A stretch of 64,000 nt of DNA, from NCBI RefSeq assembly GCF_016026235.1, contig NZ_CP065613.1; one strand, written 5' to 3'. A program made the translations under genes and the position numbers. The stretch comes from Escherichia coli (GTDB lineage: Bacteria; Pseudomonadota; Gammaproteobacteria; Enterobacterales; Enterobacteriaceae). The notes beneath the pieces were generated by a model, which saw only the letters and a list, made by a program, of their open reading frames with translations, was not told where the DNA came from and searched no databases. Position 1 is the first letter of the stretch, and each line of letters opens with the position of its first letter. Below are positions 24,271-26,316 of the stretch, piece after piece.

Positions 24271-24521
24271 GAGTTCCCCGCGCCAGCGGGGATAAACCGA
24301 TGACAAAAATTTGCAGGTGCTGGCAGAGGCCGAGTTCCCCGCGCCAGCGGGGATAAACCGTCAGGTGGGATGGTCAGCGCGAAACACACGCCGAGTTCCC
24401 CGCGCCAGCGGGGATAAACCGAGCGCGCAGTTATCAGCCGCGACAACATGAAAGAGTTCCCCGCGCCAGCGGGGATAAACCGCTCATATACGTTACAGCG
24501 TCGGAAATGGAGGCGAGTTCC

Positions 24522-25816
24522 CCTGAGGAATCCCCAGAAAACAAGACAGGCATAGTGAGATGTGATCTAATTGATTGTGCTAACAATTTCAAGGAGATCA
24601 CCACTATGCCTGCACGTTCATTATGCCAAAATTTCCTTAACAACATACTGGCCCCTTTGCATCTTTACCGTCAAAAATCACTGATTGACGCAACTAATGC
24701 TGTAATAAATGGCGCTTCCCTCACACTTACCAGTATCGGGCGTCATTTAACCGGTACGGCATCAGTTAAAAACAAAATAAAGCGGGTGGATCGACTGTTG
24801 GGGAATCGACATTTGCAAAATGAGGTTTCCACCATTTTTCAGCGAATTACCCAAAAGATTACGCGGGGAATGTCTCGTGTTGTGATACTCATTGACTGGA
24901 GTGCTTATCATGCCTCTCGTTTTCAGCTTTTGCGGGCAAGCCTGGCATGTGACGGGCGTTCTTTACCGTTGATGAGTTGTGTCGTTCCATCATCACAGAC
25001 AGCGAATGCAGATGTACATGAGCGTTTTCTGGAATCGCTTGCTGAGTGCTTTTCCCCCGGGACTGATGTCATTGTTATTACAGATGCCGGTTTTCAGGGG
25101 CGATGGTTCCAACAGCTCCGCTCCCGTGGCTGGACCTATATTTGCCGGGTACTGGGCAATCATTATTACAATGTTGGTAATGGCTGGGAAAAGGTGTCGG
25201 ACTCAGGCACAAAAGCATCAACGACAGCAATTTATTTAGGTGAAGGCCTGCTGGGTCGAGATAAAAATGCACAACATGAAGGGCATTTTTATCTTTATAA
25301 AAGTAAGCCTAAAGGTCGTAGATTTAAACGCTCGAAGGAAAGAGCAACCAGACCATCGGTGACGGCTAAAGCTCGTACTGCCGGGAAATCACCATGGTTT
25401 ATTTTCACAAACAGTACTGAGTTCTCGCCAAAACAGGTAATGAAATTATACAGCCGTAGAATGCAAATTGAGCAAAATTTCAGGGATGAAAAAAATCCTC
25501 GCTGGGGATTTGGACTACGGTTTGGTGCCAGTCATTCATCCGGGCGGGTCACGGTATTGAGTCTGATCGCAACATTAGCCAGTATCATTATGTGGTTAAG
25601 CGGTTTCAGCCTGGAAAACAAAGGGATACATCATAAATATCAGGCAAATACAGTGAAGCACAGGCGAGTCATCTCGTTATTAAAACTGGCGGAGAATGTG
25701 ATTCGACATTCTCCACTCATACTAAACACACTGTCACTTGACGCAGGGCTGAAAGTTCTACAGCAACGGTATACCAATATGATAATGGTTTACTAAATTT
25801 TCTGGGGATCCCTCAG
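24522..25816 (+). mobile_element. IS4-family, IS10-like insertion sequence (copy 1, intact), about 1295 bp
   Basis: Imperfect terminal inverted repeats CCTGAGGAATCCCCAGAAAA / TTTTCTGGGGATCCCTCAG; flanked by 9-bp direct repeat GCGAGTTCC (24513-24521 and 25817-25825); single transposase ORF. Boundaries +/-1 bp. Confidence 0.85.
24606..25796 (+). CDS. IS10-like DDE transposase
   Basis: MPARSLCQNFLNNILAPLHLYRQKSL...; shares motifs with IS10 transposase recalled from memory (IKRVDRLLGNRHL, RRMQIEQNFRDEK, YQANTVKHRRVIS). Confidence 0.8.
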   Translation: MPARSLCQNFLNNILAPLHLYRQKSLIDATNAVINGASLTLTSIGRHLTGTASVKNKIKRVDRLLGNRHLQNEVSTIFQRITQKITRGMSRVVILIDWSAYHASRFQLLRASLACDGRSLPLMSCVVPSSQTANADVHERFLESLAECFSPGTDVIVITDAGFQGRWFQQLRSRGWTYICRVLGNHYYNVGNGWEKVSDSGTKASTTAIYLGEGLLGRDKNAQHEGHFYLYKSKPKGRRFKRSKERATRPSVTAKARTAGKSPWFIFTNSTEFSPKQVMKLYSRRMQIEQNFRDEKNPRWGFGLRFGASHSSGRVTVLSLIATLASIIMWLSGFSLENKGIHHKYQANTVKHRRVISLLKLAENVIRHSPLILNTLSLDAGLKVLQQRYTNMIMVY

Positions 25817-26316
25817 GCGAGTTCCCCGCGCCAGCGGGGATAAACCACCATATAACCCGTTATCTCTTTCTCAAGTTTTTATATTAGCAGTACTTGTAAT
25901 AAGCAACATATCCACGTAACACCTCATGTTCAAAATAGTTCTCCATGCCAGAGAAGTTCACAATTATCGATACAAAAAATTAAGTTTAATCAAAGTATTA
26001 TTTGTATGATTCTTAAATCATTAAGAAATTTTAATATATTATTTTTTTAATATTAATTAATGCCTGTTAATTTTTGCTTAAGTATAACAGTGTATTTTTT
26101 AAGCTTGTTATTCATTGATTAAGTAATAAATCTGGAAGTTTGTCTTTGTTTTGAGGCTAATGAGTGGTTTTACATAACCGCCTCTATACGCTGTTGATGA
26201 ATAGTTCTTATGAATAAAGATATTCAGTTCATACTTTAAGTGAAAATTGATAAAGTGCGATTCGTATTGTCTTTTATTCTAAAGACATCGAGTGTAGTTA
26301 ATATTCCTTGTAAAAA

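Follow-up and report, generated by a model that had tools for sequence, protein, structure and literature searches.

The window analysed here, a stretch of 64,000 nucleotides of Escherichia coli DNA, opens with 24 kb (gud genes, barA, relA, mazG, pyrG, eno, queE) that are 99-99.9% identical to E. coli chromosomes and continues, between queE (ygcF) upstream and ygcE downstream, with a CRISPR array whose region is only ~92% identical to E. coli. A species of Escherichia other than E. coli was considered on account of this lower value and rejected in view of the 99-99.9% identity of the flanking 24 kb. As established by repeat detection and reading, the array occupies positions 24271..24514 on the plus strand and consists of four perfect copies of the 29-bp repeat GAGTTCCCCGCGCCAGCGGGGATAAACCG (24271-24299, 24332-24360, 24393-24421 and 24454-24482), which alternate with four unique spacers of 32 nt each, S1 to S4. 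The start-to-start spacing of the repeats is 61, 61 and 61 bp, and the chance expectation for matches to the array repeat, as estimated from 100 shuffles of the sequence, is 0. The repeat is the E. coli type I-E consensus, with a 7-bp GC stem detected in its palindromic core, and shows a single base difference from the internal repeats of K-12, which begin with GTGTT where those of the window begin with GAGTT. Upstream of repeat 1 an AT-rich leader of 338 bp (23933..24270, plus strand) extends back to the queE stop codon; it is ~95% identical to the CRISPR-II leader of K-12, and its final 39 nt are the same in both. A scan for sigma-70 promoters returned 11 sites where 6.0 +/- 2.8 were expected, none of them informative for the leader. 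The initial annotation had described four perfect 29-bp repeats and four 32-bp spacers of type I-E behind an AT-rich leader next to queE, and all of this was borne out: the repeat coordinates and the 61-bp period held on re-inspection, the type I-E assignment agrees with the repeat consensus, the period and the K-12-like leader, and the spacer sequences read exactly as they had been transcribed.

The fifth repeat is interrupted. S4 is followed by 8-9 nt of repeat, then by an IS element, and then by a full terminal repeat at 25819..25847 (plus strand; GAGTTCCCCGCGCCAGCGGGGATAAACCA, ending in AAACCA), which owes its full length to the target duplication generated by the insertion. This terminal copy shows one mismatch relative to the four perfect array copies and is identical to the terminal repeat of CRISPR2.3 in K-12. 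Rfam CRISPR direct-repeat models did not match at E <= 0.1 anywhere in 23600-26600, a result that we treated as uninformative in view of the exact identity to K-12 repeats. The 0.5 kb downstream of the terminal repeat are collinear with K-12 and lead to a degenerate repeat at 26350..26378 (plus strand), a remnant of the CRISPR2.2 mini-array that aligns to the second of the two degenerate K-12 repeats; this sixth repeat had not been part of the initial annotation. Since the leader, the terminal repeat, the downstream 0.5 kb and the degenerate repeat all correspond to K-12, the array is, as judged from its sequence, the canonical E. coli CRISPR-II locus between queE/ygcF and ygcE, composed of CRISPR2.3 and the CRISPR2.2 remnant. 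We follow here the CRISPR-II naming of Almendros et al. (2014, PMC3903273), in which CRISPR2.2 and CRISPR2.3 are separated by a gap of 0.5 kb. The two loci thus share their chromosomal position, the leader, the terminal repeat ending in AAACCA, the downstream DNA, a degenerate CRISPR2.2 repeat and the 29/32-nt architecture. Apart from the start of the internal repeats, the window differs from K-12 in its spacers (four versus six, with none in common), in the ISEc60 element that splits the terminal repeat, in having one instead of two CRISPR2.2 repeats, and in the absence of the cas-E operon that K-12 carries at cysH.

The interrupting element (24523..25816, plus strand) is a 1294-bp copy of ISEc60, a cut-and-paste member of the IS4 family, with the termini CTGAGGAATCCCCAGAAAA and TTTTCTGGGGATCCCTCAG, whose 19-nt terminal inverted repeats differ from each other at one position. 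It is >99% identical to RefSeq-annotated ISEc60 copies and identical to the consensus of 12 copies. The transposase gene (24606..25796, plus strand), which encodes 396 aa and is co-directional with array transcription, matches the NCBIfam IS4 transposase model NF033591 with 360 bits (cutoff 152). The identity of its product is 100% over 396 aa to the RefSeq ISEc60 transposase, 52% to that of ISSfl1 and ~36% to those of IS10A/ISVsa5. ISEc60 and the IS10 element of Tn10 both belong to the IS4 family, and both encode their transposase in a single ORF, have similar termini (CTGA...TCAG, then ATCCCC) and prefer symmetric targets. IS10 is, however, 1329 bp long and generates a 9-bp duplication, as opposed to 1294 bp and 10 bp (10-11 bp across copies) for ISEc60, and the two transposases are the ones found to be ~36% identical. 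The IS10 target consensus is NGCTNAGCN, unlike that of ISEc60. The term "IS10-like" in the initial annotation is therefore acceptable at the level of the IS4 family and for the similar ends of the two elements, whereas by its own sequence the element is ISEc60 and not IS10.

ISEc60 is flanked on both sides by the 10-bp target duplication GCGAGTTCCC (left copy 24513..24522, right copy 25817..25826, both on the plus strand), which is made up of the last 2 nt of S4 and of 8 nt from the start of repeat 5. The direct repeat around the element in the window extends to up to 12 bp (GGCGAGTTCCCC), so that the window alone is unable to tell a 9-bp from a 10-bp duplication. The termini were set by comparing the flanks of 12 ISEc60 copies (the window and eleven other loci), among which C|TGAGG is constant and the next outward base is variable; this defines the termini as CTGAGG...CCTCAG and the length as 1294 bp. 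A split repeat with a target duplication had thus been recognized correctly from the start, with values that were off by one (1295 bp, 9 bp and a split after the 7th base of the repeat). The duplication is intact and both flanks of the element are collinear with K-12, and ISEc60 entered the boundary between spacer 4 and the terminal repeat by simple transposition, in agreement with the initial proposal.

The position of the insertion corresponds well to the target choice of the element. Seven independent simple insertions of ISEc60 show duplications of 10 bp (six independent sites) or 11 bp (one site type), with the core GGGWWWWCCC. The targets, such as GGAAATTCCC, GGGTTTCCCC, GGGATATCCC and GGGATTTTCCC, have a G run and a C run separated by four or five A/T positions, and GC often comes after the C run. 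A half-site matrix was derived from non-CRISPR ISEc60 sites only, and the window was scored with it after the IS element had been computationally excised. The repeat-5 site reached 15.8 bits, compared with a background of -27.4 +/- 12.3, and ranked 41st of ~125,000 candidate positions; it also scored best of the five repeats, the other four of which reached 15.2 (R1), 10.7 (R2), 10.3 (R3) and 7.9 bits (R4). Within this target, the repeat provides the C-rich half (GTTCCCCGCG), and the G-rich half comes from the last bases of spacer 4 (GGAGGC|GAGTTCCCCGCG). ISEc60 hence appears to favour nearly palindromic targets of the form GGG-WWWW-CCC with G/C runs on either side, and this preference, together with the 10-bp duplication, was derived in the present analysis. 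A comparable behaviour is found in IS186/IS421, likewise of the IS4 family, which use targets with a G run, an AT-rich core and a C run, generate duplications of 10-11 bp and can hit one hot spot in either orientation. IS186 is a different element with other terminal repeats, and the core spacing of ISEc60 (GGG-W4-CCC) appears to be shorter than that of IS186, for which SaiSree et al. in 2001 reportedly gave the consensus GGGG(N6-7)CCCC. One of the ISEc60 copies was found to adjoin an IS421 end.

The closest complete genome, FDAARGOS_943, which is 99.9% identical upstream, also has an ISEc60 copy in CRISPR2.3, at precisely the same 10-bp target, in the opposite orientation and further broken by ISSso6 and IS66. 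Among complete E. coli genomes, a junction of an ISEc60 end with the repeat was detected in FDAARGOS_943 alone, and scans of GTDB species representatives and JGI metagenomes yielded none. A CRISPR match that seemed to reach into the IS-end part of the junction query turned out to be a chance resemblance in an unrelated spacer. The opposite orientations are most likely the result of two independent hits on a preferred site, because many other IS positions differ between the two strains, because ISEc60 is present in both orientations at a homologous plasmid site, and because IS186 behaves in the same way at its hot spot, where the same site in the lon promoter is used in either orientation (PMC3045373). 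These same observations weigh against a single ancestral insertion in repeat 5, the orientation of which would differ between the genomes by inversion in place or by an error in one of the two assemblies, which may have occurred. The identical target and the 99.9% identity upstream would agree with such a single event, as would the rank of the repeat-5 site, which at only 41 in the window would by itself not predict two hits; and the IS copies are too alike to be told apart, a SNP comparison of the 12 copies having shown them to be nearly identical, so that SNPs are uninformative on whether the element was flipped or inserted twice. On the other hand, no recombination is known that inverts one IS element between its own 10-bp direct repeats, and we consider the single insertion unlikely, at perhaps a minor but real share of the probability.

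The absence of cas genes from the window, stated in the initial annotation, was confirmed by tblastn searches with eight K-12 Cas proteins, in which the best hit had E = 0.05 and no Cas similarity was found in the window, and the entire 64 kb can be assigned to IS elements and to E. coli genes other than cas. The designation of the array as "orphan" nevertheless needs context, as CRISPR-II is never located beside cas genes in E. coli and the native cas site lies inside the window on its cysH side. In E. coli, CRISPR-II is always apart from the cas-E genes, which are found ~17 kb away between cysH and iap (PMC3903273). On the cysH side, homology of the window to K-12 stops at 39371, ~90 bp before the start of cas3 in K-12. 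An intact hok toxin ORF (39369..39521, plus strand) lies where the native cas-E site borders on cysH and is followed by the ISEc60-type target GCGGGGGTAAAACCC and then by another ISEc60 copy (copy C; 39544..40303, plus strand) that lies where cas3 would begin and is cut at IS position 760. A 1426-bp IS4 element (40304..41729, plus strand) joins this truncated ISEc60 to the distant lysS-recJ-gcvP region.

At the corresponding site of FDAARGOS_943 the order is cysH-hok-ISEc60-degenerate CRISPR2.1 terminal repeat-iap, with no cas genes there and one full ISEc60 in place of cas3-cas2 and CRISPR2.1. The left junction of the hok-side ISEc60 is base for base the same in the window and in FDAARGOS_943. 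At the CRISPR2.1 site of FDAARGOS_943, 2 nt separate the IS end from the repeat that follows it, which is also the register found at CRISPR2.3. The flanks of this cas-site ISEc60 are not duplicated and both belong to the top 0.05% of half-sites, as expected for two insertions that were followed by recombination between the IS elements. Copy B of ISEc60 (31588-32881), which has taken the place of a 5.2-kb segment (ygcU to ygcN), shows the same picture: its flanks are not duplicated either, belong to the top 0.05% of half-sites and would fit two insertions with subsequent recombination. A plausible course of events would be that a first ISEc60 inserted at the terminator-like site of hok beside cas3 and a second one in the terminal repeat of CRISPR2.1, and that recombination between the two copies then led to the loss of cas3-cas2, the leader and the CRISPR2.1 array. 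The cas-E operon and CRISPR2.1 thus seem to have been lost through ISEc60-ISEc60 recombination.

Due to the IS4-associated rearrangement that begins at 40304, the iap side lies outside the window, and the statement that the source genome as a whole has lost cas is inferred by comparison with the sister genome; this loss is very probable. The opposite assumption, that the genome has kept a type I-E cas operon in another place, for example still next to iap at the other IS4 breakpoint, and that S1-S3 are processed in trans, appears improbable. CRISPR-II is normally served in trans from ~17 kb away (PMC3903273), the synteny of the window does end at 40304 with the iap side beyond it, and the shared hok-side junction does not by itself prove that the deletion is older than the divergence from FDAARGOS_943. 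However, in the latter genome hok and the CRISPR2.1 terminal repeat have only ISEc60 between them, without any cas genes, and the left junction in the window agrees with it in every base.

Loss of cas-E driven by IS elements and the presence of IS elements in CRISPR-II have already been published (Almendros et al. 2014, PMC3903273). Recombination between IS elements that removes cas-E was proposed in that study for IS186 and for an "uncharacterized ISu", and sporadic IS insertions in CRISPR-II were reported, mostly for Shigella (PMC3903273). In arrangements C and G of Almendros et al. (2014) one IS element is found at the cysH/hok side and one in the CRISPR2.1 cassette, with recombination removing the leader, cas-E and most of the array, and hok/sok is retained as in the window. 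The window differs from these arrangements in that the element can be named as ISEc60, and in that an IS4 element has truncated it further and links it to a remote part of the chromosome. The biology is ordinary in this respect, and the kind of event has been described before. More tentatively, ISEc60 might be strongly site-selective, with a preference that happens to fit the 5' end of a type I-E repeat that follows a G-rich spacer end, and it is conceivable, if rather doubtful, that the terminal repeats of this lineage were hit three times for this reason (CRISPR2.3 in both orientations and CRISPR2.1 once) before the cas operon was erased by IS-IS recombination. If true, this would represent a recurrent, sequence-driven route of CRISPR decay, as against random bombardment with IS elements.

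In type I-E systems, Cas6e cuts at the repeat hairpin, and Cascade keeps the 3' handle. With no Cas6e and Cascade, the transcript of the array would stay unprocessed, and the array is in all probability an inactive relic. A transcript of the array would continue into the IS element, in sense relative to the transposase gene. Were Cas proteins provided, crRNAs could arise from S1-S3, which have intact repeats on both sides, but only from these. Downstream of S4 just 8-9 nt of repeat remain before the 1.3-kb IS element begins, so that S4 lacks a repeat hairpin on that side and would not mature normally even then. The locus can be regarded as a textbook case of the loss of type I-E immunity through insertion sequences in E. 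coli and Shigella-like lineages, and the host lineage is itself IS-laden and probably EIEC- or Shigella-like.

Searches of the spacers against phage and plasmid databases, as had been suggested with the initial annotation, yielded no match at E <= 1 for S1-S4 and the extra spacer of FDAARGOS_943 in INPHARED (phages) and PLSDB (plasmids). The search design works, since the same query recovered the FDAARGOS_943 array in the E. coli collection. The spacer targets, initially given as unknown, could nevertheless be matched in part. S1 is identical in 32/32 positions, with the functional PAM ATG in front, to a tail-tube-like gene of the viral contig IMGVR_UViG_2831977961_000006. Both S1 (31/32, PAM ATG) and S4 (31/32) also have a match in a single STEC384 prophage, within its tail/baseplate module; this prophage is ~75% identical to that viral contig, and the flank of the S4 protospacer is ATA and not one of the canonical PAMs AAG/ATG. 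For S2 and S3 the earlier statement still stands, as no match was obtained in INPHARED, PLSDB and the complete E. coli genomes, and 20-nt seeds of S2, S3 and S4 did not match in IMG/VR. On the basis of these sequence matches, S1 and S4 appear to stem from earlier contacts with temperate myovirus-like coliphages of a single, specific family.

Taken together, we estimate at roughly 85% the probability that the locus is a canonical CRISPR-II of an IS-laden lineage, in which ISEc60 entered a preferred target by simple transposition, cas was lost by ISEc60 recombination, the array became inert, and S1 and S4 reflect past phage encounters. That the insertion and the cas deletion were instead selected, through relief from prophage self-targeting or uptake of a virulence plasmid, and do not represent neutral decay is very improbable, for while S1 and S4 match temperate phages present as E. 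coli prophages, IS inactivation of CRISPR-Cas under such pressure has been shown experimentally (PMC10359306) and ISEc60 is common on EIEC pINV-type plasmids, no spacer matches a plasmid in PLSDB, the only spacer that the terminal-repeat insertion puts out of action is the oldest one, dozens of IS copies in the lineage have disrupted many unrelated genes, and no further instance of the junction turned up in the collections searched.

The suggestion to type the strain by its spacers proved productive: S1-S4 are found in 1/5,426 complete E. coli genomes, namely FDAARGOS_943, and a spacer set of such restricted distribution is a possible lineage marker. The array of FDAARGOS_943 contains one extra spacer between S1 and S2, which indicates that the window has lost one repeat-spacer unit.

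The terminal repeat of the CRISPR2.3 array is split at an identical 10-bp target by the IS4-family element ISEc60 both in the window (24523-25816) and in FDAARGOS_943, the closest complete genome, where the element lies in inverted orientation and is in turn interrupted by an ISSso6-IS66-ISSso6 block (locus L001, 4264-11111). FDAARGOS_943 also carries an extra spacer, CGCCACCCGGAGCGTAAAAAAAATGCCGAGGC, between the first and second spacers, S1 and S2 (L001 4041-4072, equivalent to window 24331/24332), and an internal repeat-spacer unit has therefore been lost from the window array. 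Downstream, the window holds a degenerate repeat at 26350-26378 together with a partial GGGATAAACCG at 26313-26323; this degenerate repeat is what remains of the CRISPR2.2 mini-array, which in K-12 comprises two degenerate repeats and one spacer and from which the window has lost one unit. The longest ORF spanning the transposase of the array-borne ISEc60 (24507-25796) starts at an ATG within the fourth spacer, S4, and continues in frame across the left end of the element. In principle, transcription and translation running on from the array could yield an N-terminally extended transposase, but this arrangement is probably fortuitous.

A second full ISEc60 copy, on the minus strand at 31588-32881, lacks a target duplication and stands in place of about 5.2 kb present in K-12, a segment that begins within ygcU and stops at the 3' end of ygcN. 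Because both of its flanks are good ISEc60 half-sites (the G-run or C-run side of the target, scored with a matrix from non-CRISPR sites), the deletion appears to have arisen by recombination between two IS copies. At other loci, ISEc60 copies were seen in two neighbouring ibs toxin repeats (L005 338-3243), as a tandem pair 10 bp apart (L010 82-93) and, in one case, adjoining an IS421/IS186 end (L013 1403); all of these fit shared G-run/C-run targets.

On the cysH side, an intact ORF for a 50-aa Hok toxin (39369-39521), missing from K-12 at the matching position, lies between cysH and the insertion sequence. Its presence agrees with the published distribution, in which only the arrangements carrying the cas-E2 variant lack hok/sok (PMC3903273). 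A 1426-bp IS4 (40304-41729) truncates a further ISEc60 copy at the native cas-E site. Through this IS4 the cysH side is connected to lysS-recJ-gcvP, a region that continues to 64000 and in K-12 is more than 100 kb distant. Either insertion sequences mediated a large rearrangement here, or the junction was created in assembly.

An IS1 at about 28480-29248 splits the MFS transporter gene yqcE into two ORFs; FDAARGOS_943 has no IS1 at that position and carries one upstream of queE instead. The region upstream of queE in the window (19599-23053) is not K-12-like, with TPM-domain and LemA-family genes replacing ygcG/yqcG.
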